A DNA stretch of 64,000 bases from Escherichia coli (GCF_016026235.1 NZ_CP065613.1), one strand, 5' to 3'. Counted from the first letter of the stretch, positions 7,179-24,121 are shown. Numbers and translations: made by a program. Notes: generated by a model not told the origin, from the sequence alone.

Positions 7179-9158
7179 ATGAACATTTCGGAAGTCGATC
7201 TGCATAAACTGACGGTCAGCGATCCGTTCCTCGGTCAGTACCAACAACTGGTCCGCGACGTGGTGATTCCTTATCAGTGGGATGCCTTGAACGATCGTAT
7301 CCCAGAAGCGGAACCCAGCCATGCGATTGAAAACTTTCGCATTGCCGCCGGACTTCAGGAGGGTGAATTTTACGGGATGGTGTTTCAGGACAGCGACGTC
7401 GCCAAATGGCTGGAAGCGGTAGCCTGGTCGCTGTGCCAGAAGCCGGACGCCGAACTGGAAAAAACCGCCGACGAGGTAATCGAACTGATCGCCTCCGCCC
7501 AATGCGAAGACGGCTATCTCAATACTTACTTTACGGTAAAAGCACCCGAAGAACGCTGGAGCAATCTGGCGGAGTGTCATGAACTTTACTGCGCAGGTCA
7601 TCTGATTGAAGCCGGAGTCGCCTTCTTCCAGGCCACGGGAAAACGGCGCTTGCTGGGGGTCGTTTGCCGCCTGGCCGATCATATCGACAGCGTATTTGGT
7701 CCAGATGAAAGTAAGTTACACGGTTATCCTGGTCACCCGGAAATTGAACTGGCACTAATGCGCCTGTATGAAGTGACTGAAGAGCCGCGCTACCTGGCGC
7801 TGACGAACTATTTTGTCGAACAGCGTGGTGCGCAACCGCACTATTACGACCAGGAATATGAAAAGCGCGGGCAGACATCGCACTGGCACACCTACGGCCC
7901 GGCGTGGATGGTGAAAGACAAAGCCTACAGCCAGGCACATTTGCCCCTTGCGCAACAGCAAACCGCCATCGGTCACGCGGTACGTTTTGTCTATCTGATG
8001 ACCGGCGTCGCGCATCTCGCGCGTTTAAGTCACGATGACAGCAAGCGTCAGGACTGCCTGCGGCTGTGGAACAATATGGCCCAGCGTCAGTTATATATTA
8101 CCGGCGGCATTGGCTCGCAAAGCAGCGGCGAAGCGTTCACTAGCGATTACGATCTGCCGAATGACACGGTATACGCTGAAAGTTGCGCCTCCATCGGCCT
8201 GATGATGTTTGCCCGACGAATGCTGGAAATGGAAGGCGACAGTCAATATGCCGATGTGATGGAGCGCGCACTGTACAACACCGTGCTCGGCGGCATGGCG
8301 CTGGATGGCAAACATTTCTTCTATGTGAATCCGCTGGAAGTACATCCAAAATCGCTGAAATTCAACCATATCTACGATCACGTTAAACCGATCCGCCAGC
8401 GTTGGTTTGGCTGCGCTTGTTGTCCGCCAAATATCGCCCGCGTGCTGACCTCGATTGGTCATTATCTCTACACGCCGCGTGAAGATGCGTTGTATATCAA
8501 CATATACGCAGGAAACAGCATGGAAGTGCCGGTAGAAAATGGCACGCTGCGCCTGCGGGTTAGCGGGAACTATCCGTGGCAGGAGCAGGTGACGATTGCG
8601 GTTGAATCGCCCCAGCCGGTACGTCATACGCTGGCTTTACGTCTGCCGGACTGGTGCACACAGCCGCAGATCATATTGAATGGGGAAGAGGTCGAGCAGG
8701 ATATTCGTAAAGGGTATTTGCACATTACCCGCGAATGGCAGGAGGGCGATACGCTGAATCTGACTTTGCCGATGCCGGTACGCCGCGTTTACGGTAACCC
8801 GCTGGTGCGTCACGTCGCCGGAAAAGTGGCGATTCAGCGCGGCCCGCTGGTGTATTGCCTGGAACAGGCCGACAACGGCGAGTCACTGCATAATCTGTGG
8901 CTGCCCACCGATGCGCCATTTACGACATTTGAAGGCAAGGGATTGTTTAGCCATAAGATCTTAATCCAGGCACCGGGTTACCGGTATGAACAGAGCAATC
9001 CAGAGCAGCAACCGCTGTGGCATTACGACAGCGCGCCAGCCAAACGCCAGCCGCAAACTCTGACCTTTATCCCGTGGTTTAGCTGGGCTAACCGGGGCGA
9101 AGGCGAAATGCGGATCTGGGTGAATGAGGAAAAGCATCGCCATCCGGAGGTTGGATAA
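7179..9158 (+). CDS. Glycoside hydrolase family 127-like protein (DUF1680, beta-L-arabinofuranosidase family)
   Basis: A start at ATG 7179 is preceded by an AAGGAG RBS; the ORF-track start at 7155 overlaps the transporter stop. The 659-aa product contains a Cys-rich CACCPPN motif of the kind found in GH127 enzymes. Confidence 0.7.
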   Translation: MNISEVDLHKLTVSDPFLGQYQQLVRDVVIPYQWDALNDRIPEAEPSHAIENFRIAAGLQEGEFYGMVFQDSDVAKWLEAVAWSLCQKPDAELEKTADEVIELIASAQCEDGYLNTYFTVKAPEERWSNLAECHELYCAGHLIEAGVAFFQATGKRRLLGVVCRLADHIDSVFGPDESKLHGYPGHPEIELALMRLYEVTEEPRYLALTNYFVEQRGAQPHYYDQEYEKRGQTSHWHTYGPAWMVKDKAYSQAHLPLAQQQTAIGHAVRFVYLMTGVAHLARLSHDDSKRQDCLRLWNNMAQRQLYITGGIGSQSSGEAFTSDYDLPNDTVYAESCASIGLMMFARRMLEMEGDSQYADVMERALYNTVLGGMALDGKHFFYVNPLEVHPKSLKFNHIYDHVKPIRQRWFGCACCPPNIARVLTSIGHYLYTPREDALYINIYAGNSMEVPVENGTLRLRVSGNYPWQEQVTIAVESPQPVRHTLALRLPDWCTQPQIILNGEEVEQDIRKGYLHITREWQEGDTLNLTLPMPVRRVYGNPLVRHVAGKVAIQRGPLVYCLEQADNGESLHNLWLPTDAPFTTFEGKGLFSHKILIQAPGYRYEQSNPEQQPLWHYDSAPAKRQPQTLTFIPWFSWANRGEGEMRIWVNEEKHRHPEVG

Positions 9159-9262
9159 GGCGCTCGCGCCGCATCCAACGTAGGGAGCACATTGCCTGAT
9201 GCGACGCTTAATACGTCTTATCAGGCATACGAGTCGGTGCGAGAGCGTAGGCCAGCCGCACC
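9159..9262. repeat. REP-like palindromic units
   Basis: GCCTGATGCGACGCTTAATACGTCTTATCAGGCATAC and flanking GC-rich inverted repeats between the GH127-like gene and yiaT. Confidence 0.6.
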
Positions 9263-9278
9263 GACATCCACCGGTGAA

Positions 9279-10019
9279 TTAAAAACGCCAGCTCACGCCG
9301 GTGACAAAGGTAAAACTCTCATTACGATCAATCATCGGGCTGTCGGTAACCTCTTCCGGCAGCTCGCTGTATCCTGCGCTCGCCATCAATACGACGTGCT
9401 CTCCTATCGGGTATTTTGCCGTCAGGCTGACATAGGGCACCCAGGCATCCTGCGCGGAATAACTTGCCAGACCGCTACGACGGGACTCACTCTCTGAAAT
9501 GCCATAGTAATAGTCACTGAAATTCTCGTCATAATAGAGAACGCCCAGCGCAGGTGTCAGCGACAGACGACCTATCTGCATTTTGTGGAATACCGATAGC
9601 TCCCCCACCCAGCCGTTGCTGTTATCCAGAACGTCCGCAGCTGCAGAGGCTTTCACGGTTCCCCAACGCTCGTGGTGATACCAGGCAACCCCCGCCATAG
9701 CCGTACTATCACGCTTATCAAGCTGTTGCATGACATAATCGTCATTATCGGCAGGGTCAAATTCCAGCGGCATCCAGGATGCGGTCAGGCTAAGTTCATT
9801 TTTTTCACTTTGCGACAGAATAAAACCTAACGTGGTCTGACGAACATAAAAAGTATCACCTTCATAGCTAATCAGCGGAATTGCCTTTGTATTTTCATTA
9901 TAACCGCGATAAGGTGATTCATTATAAGCCGCACCGGCACCAATGGATAATTCAGGAGCAGTTGCGCTTGCCATAAAAGGCAACGCAAATAACGCCACAA
10001 TATTGCGGTTAATTAACAT
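9279..10019 (-). CDS. yiaT: MipA/OmpV-family outer-membrane protein
   Basis: 246-aa ORF with a signal peptide (MLINRNIVALFALPFMASATA) and a C-terminal aromatic residue (…GVSWRF) typical of beta-barrels; length and position match YiaT. Confidence 0.8.
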   Translation of the reverse strand: MLINRNIVALFALPFMASATAPELSIGAGAAYNESPYRGYNENTKAIPLISYEGDTFYVRQTTLGFILSQSEKNELSLTASWMPLEFDPADNDDYVMQQLDKRDSTAMAGVAWYHHERWGTVKASAAADVLDNSNGWVGELSVFHKMQIGRLSLTPALGVLYYDENFSDYYYGISESESRRSGLASYSAQDAWVPYVSLTAKYPIGEHVVLMASAGYSELPEEVTDSPMIDRNESFTFVTGVSWRF

Positions 10020-10142
10020 GTCCGGTATTCCATTTTAAAATAAGATAAAAAAGAGTCGGCATAGTAATGCTTACAATTTCTCCGGTGCAAGATTCATATT
10101 TATATAGTAATATATAAAATTATATATAATTGGGCTGTTGCG

Positions 10143-11117
10143 ATGACAAAATTACAACTTAAGTACCGGGAGTTAAAAATTATCTCGGTAATCGCTGCCA
10201 GTGAAAATATCAGCCATGCCGCGACTGTACTTGGCATCGCACAGGCCAACGTCAGCAAATACCTTGCTGATTTTGAATCAAAAGTGGGTTTAAAAGTCTT
10301 TGACCGAACCACCCGGCAGCTGATGCTCACACCTTTTGGTACCGCGCTGTTACCGTACATCAACGACATGCTGGACAGAAACGAGCAGCTTAATAATTTT
10401 ATTGCAGATTATAAGCATGAGAAACGTGGTCGGGTCACCATCTACGCCCCAACCGGCATAATTACCTATTTATCCAAACATGTAATCGATAAAATTAAAG
10501 ATATCGGTGATATCACCTTATCGCTAAAAACCTGCAATCTTGAGCGTAATGCCTTTTATGAAGGCGTCGAATTTCCTGATGATTGTGATGTTTTAATCAG
10601 CTATGCCCCACCAAAAGATGAATCGCTGGTTGCCAGTTTTATTACCCAATATGCCGTAACCGCTTATGCCAGCCAGCGCTATCTTGAGAAACATCCCATT
10701 AGCCGTCCTGACGAACTCGAACATCACTCCTGTATTTTGATCGACTCGATGATGATCGACGACGCGAATATCTGGCGCTTCAACGTCGCTGGGAGTAAAG
10801 AGGTGCGGGATTATCGCGTGAAGGGAAATTACGTTTGCGACAACACGCAATCGGCGCTGGAGCTGGCACGAAATCACCTGGGGATTGTGTTTGCGCCAGA
10901 CAAAAGTGTGCAGAGCGATCTGCAAGACGGCACGCTGGTGCCCTGCTTTCAGCACCCGTATGAATGGTGGCTGGATCTGGTGGCTATCTTCCGTAAACGG
11001 GAATACCAGCCCTGGCGGGTCCAGTATGTGCTGGATGAAATGCTGCGTGAAATTCGCCACCAGCTTGCTCAGTCGCAGCAACTGCGGCCTGAACAAGCGG
11101 CGGAAAGCGAAGATTAA
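10143..11117 (+). CDS. yiaU: LysR-family transcriptional regulator
   Basis: 324-aa ORF with an N-terminal LysR HTH; divergent from yiaT across an AT-rich spacer. Confidence 0.85.
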
Positions 11118-12250
11118 TGATCGAGATAAAGGTAATGCACCCAGCTGGTCATGCGTAATAACACTTTGCGCATCACCGAGACATGGCTGAAATGATCAGA
11201 GTAGACCGCCACCTGGGCGTAAATACCGTCTGGTAAAGCGCTCAAATCAGTGTGCTCATTCAGTTCAATGGTCGCGATAACGCCATCTGAACCCGGCGCT
11301 GTGTTTAACGTCTGTAAGGTGCCGGTCGACTGATAAGCTCCGCTGGGAACAGCTGGACTAATGGCTGCCAGCTTACCGCTGAACACTTTGCCTGGCAGAG
11401 CGTTAAATACCACTTCCGCATCATCGCCGGGAGCCAGGCGCAGCAAGGAGTTCTGACGGAACTGCGCCACGATTTGTCGTTTCTGATCGGGTATAAACAC
11501 CATCACCGGACGTAGCGGCAGCGACGCGGCATAGGTACCCGGACGAATCAGCACCTGGGTCACATAACCATCGCTCGGCGCACGCACTATCGTCTGCTCA
11601 AGGTTATATTTTGCTTCCGCGAGCTGCGCTTTCAGGCTGGCGATTTGAGAATGTTCACCCAGCACCAGGCTATCCAGCTGGCTCTGGATCTGTTTTTGTT
11701 CCGCCGCTGATGACTTCACGGAGGCTTCCTGCGCCAGATAATTTTGCCGCGCCACATCGATATCGCGTTCTGAAAACGGGTTTACTTTCGCCTGGCTGCC
11801 GCGTGCGTAACGCTGATACTCTTTAGCGAATTTATCCCGCGTGGCCTTTGCCTGCTGAGTATTCGCCGCCATCTCATCTAACTCTGCGCCCAACGCCCGC
11901 TGTTTATGTTCTGCGGTAACGATATCCGCCATCAGCCGATCCACCCGCGCCTGATAACGCGTCGGGTCCAGTCGAAATAGCACTTCACCTTTTTTAATCA
12001 GCGTATTTTTCTTATCCGTCACTTCAATCACCACACCAGTCACCTGTGGGACAACAGGAATAGAAATAACCGCTTTTTGCGCTTTAAAGGTATACGGATG
12101 GTTATAGTTCATTAACAGAATTAGACCGCTGACAATAAATATTCCACCCAGGGCCGCTGTGGGAATGGTCCATTTATTTACGGGAATTTTGAAGATCTTA
12201 AACATTGCCCATGCAAAAGCCACATAGGTCAAAATAATCAGTAAATCCAT
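11114..12250 (-). CDS. yiaV: HlyD-family membrane-fusion-like inner-membrane protein
   Basis: 378-aa ORF with one N-terminal transmembrane helix and a long coiled-coil region; paralog of the ORF at 20176..21312. Confidence 0.8.
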
Positions 12251-12255
12251 AAGTA

Positions 12256-12579
12256 TTACTCGGCAGAAGAGGATTTGATGTCGGCGAGCTGTTTCTCCAG
12301 CCCGGCAATGCGCTGTTGCAGTTGCATAACGGATGAATCATGGCTTTGCATTCCCCATCCCCGCTCCGGGCGGTAAAGCGTGGCCCAAATCCACAAAAAC
12401 GGCCAGATAACATGTAACGTAAAAAGACTCACCCAACCAGCAACATGAATGGCGTCGGCATGAGGATGATTACGTTTTTTAGCAATCAGGTAGGGAATAT
12501 CATGTAAAATAATAATCCCATAAAATATCACCAGAAATACAAAAATAAGCACTCCCAGCGCAAAATAGTCTAGGAACAT
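12256..12579 (-). CDS. yiaW: Small inner-membrane protein (DUF3302 family)
   Basis: Start chosen at the internal Met ([13 protein letters not shown]…) by alignment with the paralog at 21315..21677; two transmembrane helices followed by a C-terminal coiled coil. Confidence 0.7.
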
Positions 12580-12989
12580 ATTTCCCTCAAAGAATATAAA
12601 AAAGAACAATTAACGCATATTATGAAATGCCATGATGCAGTGCAATTTCCTTATTTATATAACGACATATTGTTTTTATATACTTTCTGAAGTGTGCTGC
12701 GTGGCTTTTCAACAGGTCGAGGTTTATCATATTGAAATAATGGAACTATTGACCAAGCTAATGAATAACTCCAGTAAAACATCCACAGTACAGATAAAGC
12801 GTATTAAACCTTCAATTATCTACCGTTTATTGCTGATTGGCCTCGAAACGCCACTGGTGATTTACGGCCTGGTTTGCCCGCTCACCATCGAAACGCGAGA
12901 TTAAACTCCTGGCAAAACACGCCCCAGAAACGCACTTCTGTTGGCGTAGTCTGGGTTATTGCGCACGTAGGTTTAAAACGTAAATTGTA

Positions 12990-13095
12990 ACAACGTGCGC
13001 TTTGTTTATGCCGGATGCGGCGTGTACGCCTTATCCGGCCTACGGTCAGGTCCCCGTAGGCATGATAAGACGAGTAAGCGTCGCATCAGGCAATG
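12990..13095. repeat. REP/BIME palindromic units
   Basis: GCCGGATGCGGCGTGTACGCCTTATCCGGCCTAC and an inverted partner downstream of aldB. Confidence 0.75.
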
Positions 13096-13122
13096 AATAC
13101 CCAATGCGACCAGCTTCTTATA

Positions 13123-14661
13123 TCAGAACAGCCCCAACGGTTTATCCGAGTAGCTCACCAGCAGACACTTGGTTTGCTGATAATGCTCCAGCATCATCTT
13201 ATGGGTTTCGCGTCCGATGCCCGACTGTTTGTAGCCGCCAAACGCCGCATGTGCCGGGTAAGCGTGATAACAGTTGGTCCACACGCGCCCAGCCTGAATG
13301 CCGCGCCCCATCTTATAGGCCAGATTACCGTTGCGGCTCCAGACGCCCGCGCCCAAGCCATATTGCGTATCGTTCGCCAGCTCCAGAGCTTCTTCCATCG
13401 TTTTGAAGGTGGTTACCGCCAGCACCGGGCCAAAAATCTCCTCCTGGAACACGCGCATATTGTTCTGACCAAACAGAATCGTCGGTTCGAGGTAGTAGCC
13501 GTCTTTCAGTTCACCTTCCAGCAGCTTGCGCCGCCCGCCGGTGAGCACGTCTGCGCCCTCTTTTTTACCGATATCAATGTAGTTGAGGATGGTTTCCAGT
13601 TGCCCGTGAGAAACCTGCGCGCCCATTTGCGTCACGCTGTCGAGTGGGTTACCGCTGCGAATGCTTTCGACACGGCGGATGGCGCGTTCCATAAAGCGTT
13701 CGTAGATTGACTCCTGCACTAAGGCACGACTCGGACAGGTGCAAACTTCACCCTGGTTAAAGGCAAACAGTGCAAAGCCTTCCAGCGCTTTATCGAAAAA
13801 GGCATCTTCTTCATCCATCACATCAGCAAAGAAGATATTTGGCGATTTGCCGCCCAGCTCCAGCGTCACCGGAATAATGTTTTGCGTTGCGTATTGCATA
13901 ATTTGTTGGCCCACTTCCGTTGAGCCGGTAAACGCCACTTTGGCGATGCGTTTCGAGGTCGCCAGATATTCGCCAATTTCCCCACCAGCGCCATTGACCA
14001 CGTTCACCACGCCCGGCGGCAGTAAATCACCGACGATTTCCATTAGCAGCAGTACAGAAAGCGGGGTAAGACGTGCGGGTTTCAGCACCACACAGTTGCC
14101 CGCCGCCAGCGCGGGAGCCATTTTCCAGCTCGCCATCAGCAGCGGGAAGTTCCACGGGATAATCTGCCCCACCACGCCTAACGGTTCATGGAAATGATAG
14201 GCCACGGTTTCGCTATCAACTTCACTGATCCCACCTTCCTGCGCCCGAATACACGAGGCGAAATAGCGGAAATGGTCAATCGCCAGCGGTACATCCGCAG
14301 CACTGGTTTCGCGAATGGGTTTGCCGTTATCCCAGGTTTCAGCTGTCGCTAACAGCTCGAGGTTTTGTTCCATTCGATCGGCAATCTTAAACAGAATCGC
14401 CGCGCGATCCTGCACCGAGGTGTGCGCCCATTTATCTTTCACTTTGTGCGCAGCATCCAGCGCCAGATCGATGTCTCGTTTGCCCGAAGACGCCACTTCG
14501 CACAGCAGCTGCCCGGTCACCGGCGTCAGGTTCTGGTAATACTCACCATCGGCAGGGACTACCCATTCGCCACCAATAAAGTTGTCGTAGCGGGCTTTTA
14601 ACTTGAGGGGGAAACCATACTCGCCGGGCTTAATCTGTGCTGAAGGGGGATTATTGGTCAT
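13123..14661 (-). CDS. aldB: Aldehyde dehydrogenase B
   Basis: The 558-aa ORF-track ORF was trimmed to the Met giving [19 protein letters not shown]… (512 aa), matching AldB; ALDH catalytic Cys region present. Confidence 0.9.
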
Positions 14662-14825
14662 GATCATCTCCTTGCGGTGTGAGGTATAACAAGGGTAGAC
14701 GTGACTGGCGAAATCTTCGCCAGCCGGTAACAGCTTTACGACAGCTATCACGAATTTACGGGCAAGGATTACAGAGATAGTTGAAAAAGCGGCTGACAAT
14801 TTGCCAGCCGTTGTTGGAATGATGA

Positions 14826-15977
14826 TTACATTGCGGCGCGATAAATCGCCACAATTTCTTCGTGAGTTGCCTGGGTCGGGTTAGTAAAGCCACAGGCATC
14901 TTTCAGGGCATTAGTCGCCAGAACCGCGAAATCTTCTTCTTTCACGTTCAGGTCACGCAGGCCTGCCGGGATATTCACTTTCTTCGCCAGTTCACGGATG
15001 GCATTGATGCACGCTTCTGCGCCTTCCGCGTCATTTTTGCCTGTCACGTTAACGCCCATGGCAGCAGCGCAGTCACGCAGACGCGCAGCAGCGACTTTGC
15101 TGTTGAACACCTGAACGTGCGGCAGCAGAACAGCATTACATACACCGTGTGGCAGGTTGTAGAAACCTCCCAGCTGGTGTGCCATCGCATGAACATAACC
15201 AAGAGATGCGTTGTTGAACGCCATACCAGCGAGGAACTGGGCATAAGCCATTGCTTCACGCGCTTTAGCATTGCTGCCATCTTCAACGGCTAATGGCAGG
15301 TTTTCGGCAATCATGGTCACCGCTTTCAGTGCGCAAGCGTCAGTGATCGGCGTTGCAGCGATAGAAACATACGCTTCGATAGCGTGTGTTAAGGCGTCCA
15401 TACCAGTGGCGGCGGTCAGTGACTTCGGCATACCGATCATCAGAGATGAGTCATTGACAGAAAGCAGCGGAGTCACGTGCTTATCAACAATCGCCATTTT
15501 GATGTGACGCGCTTCGTCGGTGATGATGCAGAAACGAGTCATTTCTGATGCTGTACCCGCAGTGGTATTGATGGCGATCATCGGCAGCTGCGGTTTTGCA
15601 GAGCGGTCAACGCCTTCATAATCACGGATATCACCACCATTGGCTGCCACCAGCGCAATACCTTTTGCACAGTCATGCGGAGAACCACCGCCTAAGGAAA
15701 TCACGCTATCGCAATTATTTTCTTTAAGTAATTTCAAACCTGCGGCGACGTTTTCCGTGGTTGGGTTAGGTTGGGTGCCATCATAAATAACGCTAAAAAT
15801 ATTGCGTTCTTCCAGTGCTTTTTGCACATCACCCGCCATACCTAATTTCGTTAACATATTGTCAGTGACAATTAATGTACGGGTAAATCCATAATCTGCC
15901 ATCATATTCATTGCATCAATCAATGAACCAGCGCCGATGACATTCACAGAAGGAATAAAGAACGTTGAAGCTGCCAT
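14826..15977 (-). CDS. yiaY: Iron-containing (group III) alcohol dehydrogenase
   Basis: 383-aa ORF of the Fe-ADH family (GGGSPHD motif); position matches yiaY. Confidence 0.88.
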
Positions 15978-16075
15978 AACACACTCCTGAAAGTGTAAAA
16001 AAGGGTGGGCAGCTTACTGAGGATTTTCATTCGAAAATATGATCATTATTATTGATTATCAAAATTAATCTAATA

Positions 16076-16113
16076 AAAAGCACATTGTATTCATTAAACA
16101 ATGTGCTTTTTTT
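16076..16113. terminator. Bidirectional rho-independent terminator downstream of selB
   Basis: Hairpin CACATTGT-(loop)-ACAATGTG flanked by an A-run on one side and a T-run on the other, inside an AT-rich spacer. Confidence 0.6.
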
Positions 16114-16166
16114 AAAATCATAAGAAATTTGTATTAATTTATTTTAAAAATTAATTAATCATTTCC

Positions 16167-18011
16167 TTATTTTTCCGGAAATAATAATGCGTCGCGCAAT
16201 AAATGATCATTTCCGCGACGCCGCGTAAAGCCAATGCGGTCAAAATATTCCAGGATTTGAATCGCCAGTTTTCGCCCAACCCCTAAGCGATCGCGGAAAT
16301 CCGCCGCGCAGGTTGAACCACATTCCTGATCGAGATCGCGGATCATATTGGCAAACTCGACAATCCGATCGTTACGGTAATAACGATCTTTGACGATCGC
16401 GGTAATTATCCCCTGTTGGGCCGCCTGGCGTAGCGTCAGGCGCATTGCCTGCTCGTCGGTTCCCGTCTCTTTTGCCAGGTCACGCACCCACCACGGTTCG
16501 TCACCAAACAGCGGCTCTGCTTTTTGCCAGATGGCCTGCTGCTCTTCGCTGAAGCCCGCTTTGTGATCCGGCAGATGCAGCCAACCGTGATGACTGAGGA
16601 TGTCGCCGCTTTCGCGCATCTTTTCAATCAGCAACAGTACCAGCGCTTCATCTTCCATTGGCAACGCCATACGTCGCAGACGTTCGCGCCCAGGACCAGG
16701 TTCATCACGATGTTGCTCATGATAAGTCGCTAATGTGTCGAGAATTTTCCGCTGCCAGCGGGCGGCAACCGGCGCATTCAACAAGCTATAACCAGCCTGA
16801 ATATAGCCAGGCTGTTGCAGCAGTTCGCGCATCCCTTCGCCGTTGAGCTGGCGCGCCCAGGCGAAATCCGCAAGGTTAACCGCTCCGCGTTCCAGATGAA
16901 CAGATAACGCATCGGCATCGCTCTGCGCCCGTGCAAGAGACGCCAGCCATTGCAGATATTCCGGCTTACGTTTACCGCGACGCGGCGGGTTAAGCATCAC
17001 CACACGCGCCCCCGCCAGCGTATTGCGGGCCGAGATATCGCGCAACACTAAGCGATCGTTATCCGCCAGCCACAGCGGCGTGTCGAACACCAGCTCGGCA
17101 AGGTTATCTTCCAGCAACGAAACGCGTCCCGTAACGTGGCTGGCGGCGTGGTGAATATGCAGCGGCTGCCACTGGGTCAGCGGCGTATGGGTTTGAAGCT
17201 CGACAATAACCCGCGTGAACGGCTCTGGCGGCACATCGGCAAGCAGCCAGTCGCCACGGTTAATCTGCTCTTTTTCCGCATCCCCCGCGATGTTAAGCGC
17301 GATACGCTGGCCGGCATGAGCGGTTTCTGTTGGCTGGTTTTGTGCATGCAGCGCACGTACACGCATCGGTTTATTTACACCAGTCAGCCATAGTGAATCG
17401 CCTACCTTCACTTCCCCGCTTAACGCCGTACCGGTGACCACCAGCCCGGCACCTTTTACGGTAAATGCGCGGTCGATCGCGAGGCGGAAACTATGTTGGC
17501 TGGCGTGTTCACGTTCTGGTAACTGAAGTAGATGCTCGCGCAGGGCATCAATTCCCCGACCTTCGGTTGCTGCGGTGATAAACAGTTTTGCCTCAGCAAA
17601 ACCGTATTCCCGCAGAACCTCCTTTACCTGGCGTTCAACCTCATCAACACGCGCTTCGTCCACGCGATCAGCTTTGGTCAGCGCCACTGTCAGCATCGGG
17701 TTACCGGTCAGCTGCAAAATCGCCAGATGCTCACGGGTCTGTGCCATCACGCCGTCATCGCACGCCACCACCAACAGCGCGTGATCGATACCACCAACGC
17801 CCGCCAGCATGTTGGAAAGAAACTTTTCATGACCGGGTACGTCGATAAAACCAGGCACGCGACCATCCGGCTGCGGCCAGTAGGCATAGCCGAGATCGAT
17901 GGTCATGCCGCGCTTTTTTTCTTCCGGCAGACGGTCAGCATTTACGCCAGTAATCGCCTGCAATAAGGTTGTTTTGCCGTGGTCAACGTGTCCGGCAGTC
18001 GCAATAATCAT
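16167..18011 (-). CDS. selB: Selenocysteine-specific translation elongation factor SelB
   Basis: 614-aa ORF with an N-terminal GTPase G1 motif ([10 protein letters not shown]); overlaps the selA stop, indicating an operon. Confidence 0.92.
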
Positions 18012-19399
18012 TTCAACAACATCTCCAAAAACCGTTGCTCATCTTCAAGGCAGCGTAAATCCAGCCACAATCGTCCGTCATAAATACGACCAATCACCGG
18101 CACTGGCAATTCACGCCAGCGGGCGGCTAATGACTCAAGGTGGCTACCGCGTCCATCATGGGGTGTAAACGTTAATGCCGCGCTCGGCAGGCGATCAACC
18201 GGCAGCGAACCACTGCCAATCTGCGAAAGACATGGCATAACCTGTACCGCAAACTCCGCGCCGTAATGTGCGGCAAGGGGAGCCTGTAAATGTTGTGCCT
18301 GGATTTGAATGACCTCTGCGCTGCGGGTAAGCAGGCGCAGGGTCGGTAATTTTTCACTCAGAGCTTCAGGGTGTAAATAAAGACGCAACGTGGCTTCCAG
18401 CGCCGCGAGGGTCATTTTATCCGCGCGTAATGCACGCTTCAGCGGGTGGCTTTGCAGGCGGGCGATCATCTCTTTTTTACCAACGATAATCCCTGCCTGC
18501 GGCCCGCCTAACAACTTGTCGCCGGAGAAGCTCACCAGACTGACGCCCGCCGCAATCAACTCCTGCGGCATTGGCTCTTTCGGCAAACCGTACTGGCTAA
18601 GATCGACCAGCGAGCCACTGCCTAAATCAGTCACTACGGGAACATCCAGCTCTTTGCCGAGCGCCACCAGTTCAGCTTCGTCTATCGCTTTGGTGAACCC
18701 CTGAATGCTGTAGTTACTGGTATGTACTTTCATCAACAGTGCGGTATTTTCATTCACCGCCTGACGATAATCATTCGCGTGCGTGCGGTTGGTGGTCCCT
18801 ACTTCGTGTAGTGTGCAGCCTGCCTGACGCATAACATCGGGAATACGAAACGCGCCGCCAATCTCCACCAATTCGCCGCGAGAAACCACCACCTCTTTCC
18901 CGCTGGCAGTGGCCGCCAACATCAATAACACCGCCGCCGCATTGTTATTAACGATACAGGCATCTTCCGCCCCCGTAATACGGCACAGCAACTGTGCCAG
19001 CGCACGATCGCGATGTCCGCGTCCGGCGTCGTCCAGATCGTACTCGAGGGTCACTGGCGAACGCATAGCCTGCGCAACGGCTTCCACCGCGGCTTCCGCC
19101 TGTAAAGCTCGCCCAAGGTTGGTATGCAGCACGGTTCCCGTCAGGTTGATCACCGGACGCAGCGCACTCTGCGCCTCTTTCGTCAACCGGGCATCGACTT
19201 CTTGCGCCCAGTTTTCACACCACGCAGGCAGCGTCTGGCTGCCACGAATCACTTCTCGCGCTTCGTCGAGCATCTGACGCAACAATTCCACCACGCGGGT
19301 GTGACCATAAGTATCACGCAAAGAAAGGAAGGAGCTATCGCGCAATAAGCGATCAATAGCCGGAAGTTGACTATAGAGGGAACGCGTTTCGGTTGTCAT
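18008..19399 (-). CDS. selA: L-seryl-tRNA(Sec) selenium transferase (selenocysteine synthase) SelA
   Basis: 463-aa ORF; PLP enzyme; length and context match SelA. Confidence 0.92.
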
Positions 19400-19496
19400 A
19401 GGAAACCTGGCTGATCAAGGCCCTCTCACACGGAGAAGGGCGTTTAACATAACCACGGATTGTAACGTGAGATGGGTCAGGAGGACATATCGCGCA

Positions 19497-20105
19497 TCAA
19501 GCCTTTGGCGGTTCGGTGCGAGCAAAACTTTCGCGGCTAAACAGGTTTTCGACCAGTTTGACTAAGTGTGGGCGGTCGACACACCAACCTGGCGCAACGC
19601 GGCGGAAATTGAGATATCCGACGGCACAGGCAATAGCGATAGTCGCCAGATTGACCGTATCGGTTTTGAGTGTGCCATCGACCAGATATCCTTCCAGCAC
19701 ATCCAGACTGCGGTTGATTTTCTCCCGCTGGCGTAACAATTCATCTTCAGACTGCTGCGCCGCTGGACGCGCCTGTTCACGCACCGATACCAGCCCAGCA
19801 TCCATAATGCCATCCGCCAGTGCCTCAATTTTGCGCACCCGCAACGACTCCAGCGGATCGCGCGGCAACATCGCCGGAGCGACATTCATTAATTCAATAT
19901 ATTCAGCGATGATCGGCGAATCAAACCAGCATTCGCCCTCTTCGGTCACCAGCACCGGCACTTTTCCTAACGGGTTAAATTGCGCCACGCCGTTGTCCGC
20001 GTTATAGGGCAGTTCATTAATAAATTCGAAAGTTATGCCCTTTTCTAACAACAGAATAGAAAGTTTGCGTACAAACGGGCTGGTGTAGCTACCGACGAGT
20101 TTCAT
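19497..20105 (-). CDS. yibF: Glutathione S-transferase family protein
   Basis: 202-aa ORF with a GST N-terminal thioredoxin-like fold; position matches yibF. Confidence 0.85.
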
Positions 20106-20175
20106 GCCGAGTCCTTTGTGCGAGGAAAAATATCAGTATGGCTCAGGCTCACGCAAAACACAGGTGATATAAGTC

Positions 20176-21312
20176 TCAATGATCCAAATAAAGATAATGC
20201 ATCCAGCTGGTCATTCTTAGCAGCACTTTTCGCATCACCGAAACATGGCTGAAATGGTCGGAGTAAACTGCCACCTGGGCGTAAATGCCGTCGGGTAAGG
20301 CATCGATATCATCGTTAGGGTCCAGTTCAATGGTTCCCAGCACACCGTCCGTGCCGGGCACGACCGTTAATGATTGCAATACCCCCTGCGCCTGATAAGA
20401 ACCGCCTGGCACGACAGGTAAAATACTGGTCAGTTTGCCGTGGAACACCTGCCCAGGTAGCGCGTTAAACACCACTTCCGCATCATCGCCAGGTTTCAGA
20501 CGTAACAGCGAGTTTTGCCGAAATTGGGCGACAATTTGCCGTTTTTGCTCGGGGATGAAGACCATCACCGGACGCAGCGGCAAGGCAGCGGCGTATGTGC
20601 CTGGGCGGATCAGTACCTGAGTGACGTAGCCATTGCTCGGTGCGCGAATGACGGTCTGTTCAAGGTTATATTTTGCTTCTGTAAGTTGCGCTCTTAAGCT
20701 CACAATCTGCGATTGCTCGCCGTTAACCATACTGTCGAGCTGGCTCTGGATCTGCGCCTGCTCCGCCACCGAGCCTTTCACCAGCGCATCCTGCGCGAGG
20801 AAATTTTGCCGCGCATCGTCGATGTCACGTTCCGAGAACGGATTCACCGCCGCCTGGCTGCCTTTCAGATAACGTTGATAATTTTTAAACAGACGGTCGC
20901 GCTCCGCTGAAACCTGGGTGGTGTTGGCCTGCGCTTCAGTGAGCTGCGCGCGCAGCGTCTTTATATTATGCGTCGCCGTCATCAGGTCAGCCTGAAGTCT
21001 GTCAACTCGCGCCTGGTAACGAACCGGGTCGAGCTTAAAAAGCACCTCGCCCTTTTGAATAAGCTGATTATTCTTGTCAGTGACTTCAGTAACAATTCCC
21101 GTCACCTGTGGCGTGATGGGGATCGCTATCACAGCCTTTTGCGCGGTAAAAGTGTAAGGGTGGTTGTAGTTCATCAACAAAATCAAACCACTCACCAGAA
21201 ACACGCCTCCCAGCGCCGCCGTCGCCAGCGTCCACTGATTCACCGGAATACGAAAGATTTTAAAGACCGCCCACGCCAGCGCCACATAAGTTAAAACAAT
21301 CAATAGATCCAT
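20176..21312 (-). CDS. yibH: HlyD-family membrane-fusion-like inner-membrane protein (yiaV paralog)
   Basis: 378-aa ORF with high protein and nucleotide similarity to 11114..12250 (same length, same start MDLLI(V/I)LTYVA…). Confidence 0.8.
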
Positions 21313-21314
21313 AA

Positions 21315-21677
21315 TTAGATCTCCGGGAACGTGGAATAGTCAGTCTTTTTCTCGGCGGCGAGTTGGTGCTCCAGCCGGGAAATTCGGTCAGAAAGTGCGG
21401 CGATTTCCGGGTCAGTCGCTTTCTCCTGCGACGCAACATGTGACTGCATACCCCAGCCACGCTCCGGTTGATAGAGCGTCGCCCAGATCCACAGAAACGG
21501 CCAGATAACATGCAGAGTAAACAGGCTCACCCAGCCCGCCGTATGAATAGCGTCGGCATGGGGATGGTTGCGCTTTTTGGCAATCAGATAAGGGATGTCA
21601 TGTATCGCGATGATTCCATAAAAAATCACCAGAAAGACGAAGATCAGCACTCCCAACGCGAAATAGTTTAGAAACAT
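21315..21677 (-). CDS. yibI: Small inner-membrane protein (DUF3302; yiaW paralog)
   Basis: 120-aa ORF; the first roughly 75 residues are near-identical to the yiaW product. Confidence 0.75.
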
Positions 21678-22213: not shown

Positions 22214-24121
22214 ATGTCATCCGATATTAAGATCAAAGTGCAAAGCTTTGGTCGTTTCCTCAGCAACATGGTGATGCCAAATATCGGCGCGTTTATCGCG
22301 TGGGGTATCATCACCGCGTTATTTATTCCAACAGGGTGGTTACCGAACGAGACGCTGGCGAAGCTGGTCGGGCCGATGATCACTTATCTCCTGCCGCTGC
22401 TGATCGGTTATACCGGTGGTAAGCTGGTAGGCGGCGAACGTGGCGGCGTAGTCGGTGCCATCACCACCATGGGCGTTATCGTCGGCGCAGACATGCCGAT
22501 GTTCCTCGGTTCTATGATTGCAGGTCCGCTGGGCGGCTGGTGCATTAAGCACTTCGACCGCTGGGTAGACGGTAAGATCAAATCCGGTTTTGAGATGCTG
22601 GTGAACAACTTCTCCGCAGGCATCATCGGGATGATCCTCGCCATTCTGGCATTTCTCGGCATTGGCCCGATTGTTGAAGCCCTGTCCAAAATGCTGGCTG
22701 CGGGCGTTAACTTCATGGTTGTCCATGACATGCTGCCGCTGGCGTCTATCTTTGTTGAACCGGCGAAAATCCTGTTCCTCAACAACGCCATTAACCACGG
22801 TATCTTCTCGCCGCTGGGTATTCAGCAGTCCCATGAACTGGGTAAATCCATATTCTTCCTGATTGAAGCTAACCCAGGTCCGGGTATGGGGGTGCTGCTG
22901 GCGTACATGTTCTTTGGTCGTGGTAGCGCTAAACAGTCTGCGGGCGGTGCGGCAATTATCCACTTCCTGGGTGGTATCCACGAAATTTACTTCCCGTATG
23001 TGTTGATGAATCCGCGTCTGATCCTGGCCGTTATCCTCGGCGGTATGACTGGCGTGTTCACGCTGACTATCCTGGGCGGTGGTCTGGTTTCTCCGGCATC
23101 TCCGGGTTCTATCCTTGCTGTACTGGCGATGACACCAAAAGGTGCTTATTTCGCTAACATCGCGGGTGTGTGTGCGGCGATGGCTGTCTCCTTTGTTGTC
23201 TCTGCTATTTTGCTGAAAACCAGCAAAGTGAAAGAAGAAGATGATATTGAAGCAGCAACTCGTCGTATGCAGGACATGAAAGCTGAGTCTAAAGGTGCAT
23301 CTCCGCTGTCTGCGGGCGATGTGACTAACGACCTGAGCCACGTACGTAAAATCATCGTTGCCTGTGACGCCGGTATGGGTTCAAGTGCGATGGGCGCAGG
23401 CGTGCTGCGTAAGAAAATTCAGGATGCAGGTCTGTCGCAGATTTCTGTTACTAACAGCGCGATCAACAACCTGCCGCCAGATGTGGACCTCGTCATCACT
23501 CACCGTGACCTGACCGAACGCGCTATGCGCCAGGTTCCGCAGGCACAGCATATTTCGCTGACCAACTTCCTCGACAGCGGCCTGTACACCAGCCTGACCG
23601 AACGTCTGGTTGCTGCCCAGCGCCATACTGAAAACGAAGTGAAAGTGAAAGTGAAAGACAGCTTTGACGATTCCAGTGCTAACCTGTTCAAACTGGGCGC
23701 GGAGAACATCTTCCTCGGTCGCAAAGCTGCCACCAAAGAAGAAGCGATTCGTTTTGCTGGCGAGCAGTTGGTGAAAGGCGGTTACGTTGAGCCGGAATAC
23801 GTTCAGGCGATGCTGGATCGTGAAAAACTGACCCCGACTTATCTGGGTGAGTCTATCGCGGTGCCACACGGTACGGTTGAAGCGAAAGATCGCGTACTGA
23901 AAACGGGCGTGGTGTTCTGCCAGTACCCGGAAGGCGTGCGCTTCGGTGAAGAAGAAGATGACATTGCCCGTCTGGTGATTGGTATTGCTGCCCGTAACAA
24001 CGAGCACATTCAGGTTATCACCAGCCTGACCAATGCACTGGATGATGAGTCCGTCATCGAGCGTCTGGCACACACCACCAGCGTGGATGAAGTGCTGGAA
24101 CTGCTGGCAGCTCGTAAGTAA
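22214..24121 (+). CDS. mtlA: PTS mannitol-specific EIICBA component
   Basis: 635-aa ORF starting [27 protein letters not shown]…, matching the MtlA N-terminus. Confidence 0.93.

Follow-up and report, generated by a model that had tools for sequence, protein, structure and literature searches.

The closest described systems to the two gene pairs treated here, yiaV–yiaW and yibH–yibI of Escherichia coli, are tripartite envelope systems with EmrA-class periplasmic adaptors. Both pairs lie in a 64,000-nucleotide stretch of E. coli DNA (GCF_016026235.1, NZ_CP065613.1), called the window throughout, and each encodes a small membrane protein of the DUF3302 family and a 378-amino-acid (aa) adaptor. 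EmrA of EmrAB-TolC (PDB 8zal/8zar; A. aeolicus EmrA, 4tko) has the same inner-membrane anchor, lipoyl domain, long alpha-hairpin and beta-barrel, and a membrane-proximal domain is missing from both. However, the identity is only 18-19%, YiaV and YibH have what are probably two N-terminal membrane helices and an extra, highly conserved C-terminal helix, and they are encoded with DUF3302 and never with an EmrB-like gene of the major facilitator superfamily (MFS); their score of 113 bits is far below the EmrA cut-off of 391.

The AaeX-AaeA-AaeB system (DUF1656, adaptor and FUSC/PET pump) and its relatives that contain an outer-membrane efflux protein (OEP) follow the same operon logic, with a small protein of two transmembrane helices encoded just upstream of an EmrA-class adaptor, and such a cluster even lies side by side with a DUF3302 operon in two of the loci inspected (L166 and L170). 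Nevertheless, DUF3302 has no detectable homology to DUF1656, a FUSC gene does not accompany DUF3302, and the AaeA score is 63-75 bits against 400. Among the NCBIfam models, YiaV scores best (112.7 bits) against that of MdtNOP (YjcRQP), a TolC-family-dependent adaptor class, but this is under the 376-bit cut-off and the mdtO and mdtP genes are unlinked. AcrZ with AcrB (PDB 9tg4, 9v53) is likewise a short membrane protein co-encoded or co-assembled with an efflux machine. AcrZ, however, attaches to the pump itself, whereas the link of DUF3302 is to the adaptor, whose periplasmic domains are much less conserved than DUF3302.

The DUF3302/adaptor pair is judged to be a distinct, uncharacterised variant of tripartite envelope systems. 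From sequence and structure models, the two proteins may form a dedicated inner-membrane and periplasmic complex that docks TolC and serves as an envelope-spanning export or ion conduit, a proposal to which we give about even weight. The gene pairs were already known and annotated; yiaVW and yibHI belong to the uncharacterised E. coli 'y-ome', and yibI is a urine-induced fitness gene in uropathogenic E. coli (UPEC). What is added here is the family-level picture of an obligate DUF3302/adaptor module with conserved membrane parts, which in distant lineages is joined by an outer-membrane channel and sometimes, in addition, by a cation/proton antiporter of family 1 (CPA1).

Two paralogous operons

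The yiaWV and yibIH genes are ancient paralogous two-gene operons. A first-pass annotation of this DNA had described same-strand paralogous pairs of an HlyD-family protein and a DUF3302 protein at these positions; the open reading frames (ORFs) agree with it, and Pfam assigns both families. The features are as follows.

11114-12250, minus strand: yiaV, 378-aa EmrA-like periplasmic adaptor (membrane fusion protein); from ORF, Pfam, AlphaFold2 and Foldseek
12256-12579, minus strand: yiaW, 107-aa DUF3302 protein; from ORF, Pfam PF11742 (146.7 bits) and family alignment
20176-21312, minus strand: yibH, 378-aa adaptor, yiaV paralogue; from ORF, Pfam and NCBIfam
21315-21677, minus strand: yibI, 120-aa DUF3302 protein, yiaW paralogue; from ORF and Pfam
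12083-12250, minus strand: yiaV codons 1-56, predicted two-helix membrane hairpin (yibH counterpart 21145-21312); from alignment, hydropathy and model
11117-11203, minus strand: yiaV codons 350-378, predicted C-terminal amphipathic helix (yibH counterpart 20179-20265); from identity windows, alignment and model

Each pair is a self-contained, translationally coupled operon for a DUF3302 protein with two transmembrane helices and an EmrA-class adaptor: only 5 nt separate the yiaW stop from the yiaV start, and 2 nt the yibI stop from the yibH start. YiaV and YibH share 290 of 378 residues (77%) in a gapless alignment (E=0), and YiaW and YibI share 85 of 113 (75%, E=3e-62), with a differing C-terminal tail that is 13 aa longer in YibI. 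Each gene has just these two copies in the window.

Pairing of DUF3302 with the adaptor

The association of DUF3302 with the adaptor is almost obligate. Loci were taken from reference genomes (76), from metagenomes (80, seeded with distant family members) and from exact-protein look-ups, about 177 being inspected in all and cited here by L-numbers. A YiaV-type adaptor gene lies directly 3' of the DUF3302 gene in 144 of 164 loci, at a spacing of about -30 to +20 nt. Since 18 of the remaining 20 run into a contig end or a short adaptor fragment, 144 of 146 informative loci are paired. In the two exceptions, L110 (5740-6468) and L127 (173-850), downstream DNA is present and the adaptor gene is absent. 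The pairing persists down to 31-38% adaptor identity, in Enterobacterales, Aeromonas, Ferrimonas, Sulfurovum and metagenomes.

The DUF3302 ORFs of L110 and L127 are unusually long (225-242 aa as called), and in L110 the domain starts at residue 91. Fusion of DUF3302 to the adaptor, as a 'Rosetta stone' protein, was considered and rejected: the apparently long ORFs of L119 and L130 arise from upstream extension in another frame, and no such fusion occurs among the top 120 YiaV homologues.

Domains and conservation of the adaptor

Pfam finds CusB_dom_1, HlyD_D23 and HlyD_3 on YiaV and YibH, and both proteins belong to the HlyD superfamily by profile score, with 54.7 and 56.7 bits for PF00529 (cut-off 26.5) and 44.8 and 42.1 bits for PF16576 (cut-off 30), respectively. 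For the RND_mfp model TIGR01730, YibH scores 99.9 bits, above the cut-off of 94.9, and YiaV 88.9 bits, below it. The AlphaFold2 model of YiaV, with a mean predicted local distance difference test (pLDDT) value of 83.7, has N-terminal hydrophobic helices at residues 2-19 and 28-50, lipoyl strands, a coiled-coil hairpin of helices 97-152 and 161-218 (56 and 58 residues, about 84 Angstrom), a beta-barrel and a C-terminal helix at 355-375, and it lacks a membrane-proximal domain. The earlier description of the adaptor as single-pass is probably wrong because hydropathy and the AlphaFold model both give two N-terminal hydrophobic helices; the protein thus probably carries two membrane helices at this end, not one.

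Among PDB entries, EmrA is the best match by fold and by sequence. The best Foldseek match is EmrA in EmrAB-TolC (8zal/8zar) with a template modelling score of 0.64-0.69, with EmrA, MacA, AcrA and MexA among the matches, and the best PDB sequence match is also EmrA (E=8e-12). NCBIfam ranks MdtN, EmrA/EmrK and AaeA first, all far under their equivalog cut-offs: for YiaV and YibH, respectively, TIGR00998 gives 112 and 113.5 bits (cut-off 390.8), MdtN 112.7 and 110.9 (376), AaeA 63 and 75 (400) and EmrA 52 and 57 (563). By their sequences, YiaV and YibH are a distinct subfamily of the EmrA class. The TCDB entry for YiaV is 8.A.1.1.4, uncharacterised.

The distribution of conserved residues was taken from an alignment of 43 adaptors. 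In the membrane hairpin, Y9, F17, K18, W27, P52 and the motif MNYNHP are invariant in the family, as are R361, R366 and W370 in the C-terminal helix. The mean frequency of the top residue is 0.69 in the transmembrane hairpin, 0.65 in the C-terminal tail, 0.53 in the barrel and 0.40 in the alpha-hairpin, the length of which ranges from about 2x56 residues in E. coli to about 2x25. In comparison with the clade that has the short hairpin, 22-26 of 56 residues are identical in the transmembrane hairpin and 23-35 of 99 in the barrel. The transmembrane hairpin and C-terminal helix are therefore conserved equally to or better than the periplasmic domains. This pattern would be unusual for a mere membrane anchor and suggests that the membrane parts form a functional base together with DUF3302. 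An anti-phage defence system was also considered and dropped, as PADLOC defence models gave no meaningful match: two marginal coiled-coil matches for YibH (E ~0.005) and none for YiaV, YiaW or YibI.

The DUF3302 protein

PF11742 covers YiaW with 146.7 bits and YibI with 140 bits (cut-off 32) over model positions 1-76 of 77, which is practically the full profile. The family alignment shows two membrane helices, of which the second is Trp-rich, and a variable C-terminal coiled coil. The loop between the helices is invariant and rich in His, Asp and Arg (HDIPYxIAKxRxHPHxDAIHxAGW). DUF3302 is a compact family. Its members form 881 clusters at 50% identity, across which the core is strongly conserved; the scored candidates yielded about 8000 clusters at 90%. 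In a model fused to YiaV, the YiaW helices are placed at residues 2-35, 39-68 and 81-103. A PDB sequence search for a solved relative of DUF3302 gave chance matches only (E of 0.1 or worse). The possibility that DUF3302 is a divergent AaeX/DUF1656 protein was rejected, since hhalign gave a probability of 1.2%, in a comparison of limited sensitivity as the DUF1656 alignment held two sequences.

Gene neighbourhood

No gene for an efflux pump of the ATP-binding cassette (ABC), resistance-nodulation-division (RND), MFS or another type adjoins the pairs in the window or in about 100 loci of Enterobacterales, Aeromonas and Ferrimonas, in agreement with the first-pass annotation, and no MFS, FUSC, ABC or RND gene was seen beside the pair in the 177 loci inspected. 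A cognate transporter is thus not encoded next to the pair in most of the loci inspected; instead of the ABC, RND, MFS or PET transporter expected beside an HlyD-type adaptor, only a CPA1 gene appears, in five loci of the short-hairpin clade. The flanks in Enterobacterales, Aeromonas and Ferrimonas differ by genus and include fumarate reductase, a helicase, a LysR regulator, alcohol dehydrogenase and glutathione S-transferase/selAB genes. The label 'orphan' that had been given to these adaptors is accurate for Enterobacterales, but distant relatives encode a NodT-type channel in the operon, and half of those encode CPA1 as well.

These observations bear on the possibility that YiaV and YibH are orphan adaptors for an unlinked pump, either of the MFS (EmrB-like) or of the PET/FUSC type (AaeB, YccS or YhfK-like), with DUF3302 as a small accessory like AaeX or AcrZ. 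The closest NCBIfam models (MdtN, EmrA/EmrK, AaeA) and the match of the fold to EmrA would fit such a role, and the position of DUF3302 upstream of the adaptor mirrors that of DUF1656/AaeX in the adjacent FUSC-OEP-DUF1656-adaptor clusters of L166 and L170. However, the EmrA, MdtN and AaeA scores are far below the equivalog cut-offs (about 113 against 376-391 bits), hhalign finds no homology between DUF3302 and DUF1656 (probability 1.2%), and none of the 177 loci has an MFS, FUSC, ABC or RND gene beside the pair. In addition, of the 10 loci with sequence beyond the OEP gene, 5 have an operon of DUF3302, adaptor and OEP only, in which a pump cannot be recognised. An unlinked classical pump is therefore regarded as an unlikely, though not a far-fetched, explanation.

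An OEP gene belongs to the operon in 12 distinct distant loci. The order is DUF3302-adaptor-OEP in L095, L103, L108, L121, L138, L165, L166, L168, L170, L174 and L176, and OEP-DUF3302-adaptor in L078. The OEP of L165 scores 234 for NodT in NCBIfam, above the cut-off of 210. The operon with the OEP gene belongs to the short-hairpin clade, whose adaptors have about 317 aa and whose named members, Sulfurovum sp. NBC37-1 and Nitratifractor, are Campylobacterota. Of the 10 loci readable past the OEP gene, 5 (L103, L138, L165, L166, L170) continue with a gene for a CPA1 protein (Na_H_Exchanger, about 405 aa) after a gap of 0-12 nt, or 105 nt in L170, and these proteins score best against the models of NhaP2/CvrA-type K+/H+ antiporters (PRK05326). 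The resulting four-gene operon of DUF3302, adaptor, NodT-type OEP and CPA1 occupies 6001-9995 of L165 in Sulfurovum sp. NBC37-1. In the other five loci, no transporter could be recognised in the operon beyond the OEP gene. Gene context thus suggests CPA1 (NhaP2-like) as the only candidate for a translocator.

If this antiporter were the true inner-membrane transporter, the module would be a tripartite exporter of the CPA type, and the E. coli modules would expel a cation together with an unlinked CPA1 protein (e.g. CvrA) and TolC. The tight four-gene operons of L165, L103, L138, L166 and L170, the best scores of their antiporters against the PRK05326 K+/H+ model, a further CPA1 gene about 850 bp upstream in L092 and the invariant His/Asp-rich loop of DUF3302 are in favour of this. 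On the other hand, CPA1 follows in only 5 of the 10 OEP-linked loci readable past the OEP, all from one clade, CPA is absent from every Enterobacterales locus and from the window, and the neighbour in L077 belongs to the CPA2 subfamily and is convergent. A literature search also found no adaptor/outer-membrane-factor system with a CPA-family partner, the matches to CPA1 tripartite systems being off-topic as far as their titles and abstracts tell. A CPA-type exporter of this kind is considered improbable.

Several other neighbours recur. In L166 (1-3851) and L170 (10835-12420), the DUF3302 operon has a classical FUSC-OEP-DUF1656-AaeA-like cluster within a few kb. Serratia has a third, divergent DUF3302/adaptor paralogue with 60% identity to YiaV (L072 7289-7960, L075 7217-7960 and, as a fragment, L104), which has a gene of the DUF3313 lipoprotein family about 40 nt upstream on the same strand. 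The marine and sediment metagenome loci L090 (2602-5679), L093 (1127-4212), L094 and L131 (391-5634) share a same-strand upstream cluster for a 4Fe-4S protein of about 510 aa, a 92-aa protein and an FMN_bind/Fer4_5 protein of about 410 aa; in L131, a SulP/STAS transporter gene follows 73 nt 3' of the adaptor gene. A DUF2092 gene stands beside the DUF3302 operon in L165 (4743-5504), L166 (5086-5850) and L176 (4278-4979), divergent in two of these; in L176, as in L177, it lies immediately upstream in the same orientation. As each is lineage-restricted, fumarate reductase, helicase, Amt, SDF, SulP, the Fer4/FMN_bind cluster, DUF3300, DUF3313 and DUF2092 were all rejected as family-wide partners.

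Published phenotypes

Reported phenotypes are compatible with a role in the envelope, and none of them is mechanistic. The yibI gene is urine-induced in UPEC, and the mutant had a competitive index of 0.33 and reduced adherence. Ca2+-mediated transformation increased when yiaW was deleted, and evolved phages showed reduced plaque formation on a Klebsiella yibH deletion mutant. In macrophage-evolved E. coli, yiaW was hit by an IS1 insertion, to which no phenotype could be attributed. The literature search found no mechanism assigned to these genes, and its mentions of DUF3302 were not about the function of the domain.

Mild, envelope-related phenotypes, the lack of a pump at the locus and neighbours that vary (DUF3313 in Serratia; DUF2092 in L165, L166 and L176) could also be expected of an envelope-structural or stress-sensing assembly, e.g. 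a periplasm-spanning or periplasm-measuring complex that lets no substrate through. However, the operon link to NodT/TolC-family channels and the complete set of EmrA-like domains are characteristic of export machines, which leaves such an assembly with a small share of the probability.

Proposed mechanism

In the envelope-spanning complex favoured here, DUF3302 would be the dedicated inner-membrane partner of this adaptor class. Oligomers of the adaptor, likely hexamers as for EmrA, would build a tube in the periplasm. At its tip this tube would dock an outer-membrane factor, which would be TolC in E. coli and, in distant relatives, the NodT-type channel from the same operon. The adaptor membrane hairpins, the C-terminal helices and DUF3302 would make up its base. 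Candidates for translocation across the inner membrane are the DUF3302/adaptor ring itself, an unlinked secondary transporter, a classical pump or CPA1. A more specific version is a minimal class of envelope-spanning system, so far unrecognised, with no conventional pump in the inner membrane. Here a ring of DUF3302, with its two transmembrane helices, and of the adaptor hairpin and C-terminal helix would connect directly to the TolC/NodT channel, with CPA1 from the same operon energising or feeding it in some lineages, and E. coli would carry two ancient copies; this version is put forward tentatively and is rather doubtful. Near-obligate pairing, conserved membrane parts and channel-completed operons turn the 'orphan membrane fusion protein' into a concrete and testable hypothesis. 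If it is true that the base is made of DUF3302 and adaptor helices, or of a CPA antiporter, this would be a new architecture beside the RND, ABC, MFS and PET tripartite classes.

Several points weigh against this complex. The contacts between YiaV and YiaW, between YibH and YibI and with TolC are predictions. The AlphaFold2 model of YiaW-(GGS)10-YiaV, built with a paired 21-sequence alignment, reached a pLDDT of 71.8, with 40-70 in the YiaW part, and a predicted template modelling score of 0.46; this fused monomeric model, the output of which came without contacts or predicted aligned error, does not support a defined 1:1 packing. The hairpin-tip motif R-x3-L-x6-S, a TolC-docking motif in the MacA/AcrA literature, was not matched in YiaV, YibH or other 378-aa members in a regular-expression scan of the adaptor alignment, and it is found at the hairpin tip only in L129, L131, L136 and L163. 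No Enterobacterales locus links an OEP or CPA gene to the pair, and it is an extrapolation to assume for the 378-aa E. coli proteins the OEP link of the short-hairpin clade, in which the adaptors have about 317 aa. Finally, yibH serves as a neutral site for integration, and about 30% of strains naturally lack yiaVW; any function is dispensable in the laboratory.

Divergence of the paralogues

A pairwise nucleotide alignment of the two modules gave clear homology and no gene-conversion tract. The nucleotide identity of yiaV and yibH is 69.5% (77, 88 and 44% at codon positions 1, 2 and 3), and that of the DUF3302 core is 79% (90, 95 and 52%). Synonymous differences (pS) amount to 0.77 for yiaV/yibH and 0.75 for the DUF3302 core, which corresponds to saturation, and pS stays within 0.59-0.92 in every 40-codon window. 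The longest in-register exact match between the modules is 20 nt. Outside the genes, identity falls to a background of 25-50% in the promoter and downstream flanks, and the promoter regions are unrelated.

An identity of 80-85% had been estimated for the 3' ends. This holds locally, as 60-nt sliding windows peak at 80-87% at the 3' ends of the adaptor genes (about 11188-11250 against 20250-20310), but not for the genes overall. Windows in the 5' two-thirds of the small genes reach 77-85%. Both DNA strings quoted in the first-pass annotation were located, at 11131/20193 and 11171/20233, with a chance expectation of 0. The 3' peak coincides with a C-terminal peptide that is near-invariant family-wide, and therefore reflects protein constraint on the invariant C-terminal helix and not gene conversion. 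Gene conversion and recent duplication are rejected on the strength of the saturated synonymous sites in every 40-codon window and by the maximum exact run of 20 nt. In a neighbour-joining tree, YibH falls inside an Enterobacterales-wide lineage (Yersinia, Serratia, Klebsiella, Enterobacter and others), YiaV branches separately, with members only in Escherichia, Citrobacter, Pseudocitrobacter and Atlantibacter, and further paralogues appear in Serratia and in Citrobacter/Pluralibacter.

Population distribution

Of the 5426 complete E. coli genomes, 5406 carry yibHI and 3800 carry yiaVW. The yibHI pair is thus core in E. coli, and yiaVW is a divergent copy limited to Escherichia, Citrobacter and relatives that is missing from about 30% of E. 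coli genomes. In strain AH19E004, yiaT, yiaU, yiaV and yiaW are missing, a GH127 gene abuts aldB, and yibH and yibI are retained; the gap lies at 12949-13130 of L173, and the window equivalent of the lost block is 9279-12579. In another strain, yiaO through yiaW were lost by IS1 insertion. In some genomes with this gap, hicAB takes the place of the yiaTUVW block. A Fic-family gene that is absent from the window lies between aldB and yiaY in some E. coli strains (L173 14776-16071).

The modules had also been proposed as direct repeats that could delete, duplicate or amplify the block from aldB through selAB to yibF. They do have the same orientation at a distance of 9.06 kb, with local identity of up to about 87% per 60 nt. 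RecA-dependent recombination in E. coli depends on perfect identity over at least about 25 nt, a length that the modules do not reach, and drops off steeply as sequences diverge. The modules lack long, near-identical DNA beyond coding constraint, given their 20-nt maximum exact match, identity of 69.5% overall and 44% at third codon positions, pS of 0.77 and unrelated flanks (25-50%). Moreover, the interior 7.5-kb block is kept in one piece, at a coverage of at least 80%, in 5351 of the 5426 genomes, and the only common polymorphism deletes yiaTUVW and leaves yibHI in place, as in the genome checked. Repeat-mediated deletion of aldB-yibF is rejected on these population data, and a main importance of the modules as a recombination substrate is extremely improbable.

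Genomic context

The window DNA is about 98% identical to E. coli chromosomes, in which the four genes are annotated as yiaV, yiaW, yibH and yibI. The pairs bracket aldB–yiaY–selBA–yibF, as the ORF positions confirm. The context features are as follows.

10143-11117, plus strand: yiaU, LysR-type regulator; from ORF and Pfam
12580-20175, outside the modules: intervening stretch, opening with a REP-containing spacer (repetitive extragenic palindromic sequence)
13123-14661, minus strand: aldB, between the pairs
14826-15977, minus strand: yiaY, between the pairs
16167-18011, minus strand: selB, between the pairs
18008-19399, minus strand: selA, between the pairs
19497-20105, minus strand: yibF, between the pairs
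22214-24121: mtlA, mannitol phosphotransferase system (PTS) uptake gene, divergent and upstream of yibI

The yiaWV operon is flanked by yiaU and aldB, and yibIH by yibF and the divergent mtlA, so that no transporter gene directly adjoins either pair save mtlA (PTS uptake). OEP and CPA homologues were not detected anywhere in the 64-kb window. The spacer between yibF and yibH (20106-20175) has no rhsA, where E. coli K-12 has rhsA, yibJ, yibG and yibV. The 12.3-kb region is covered to at least 80% in one place in 3729 of the 5426 complete genomes.

The yiaU (plus) and yiaV (minus) genes are convergent with a 4-nt overlap, and the pair is listed as an excludon candidate (PMC12288877). For YiaU/LpsR, the targets reported in the literature are yiaT and the waa operon, and yiaVW is absent from the target set. 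REP-like palindromic repeats, resembling bacterial interspersed mosaic elements, lie at 13010-13090 just downstream of aldB, and next to them comes an AT-rich stretch of about 400 bp on the upstream side of yiaW. The palindromic repeats may be why the BLAST searches gave a median of three places per genome. On the plus strand, an Rfam match to naRNA4/CssrE precedes yiaT at 9149-9227, with 63.3 bits against a gathering threshold of 59.5.

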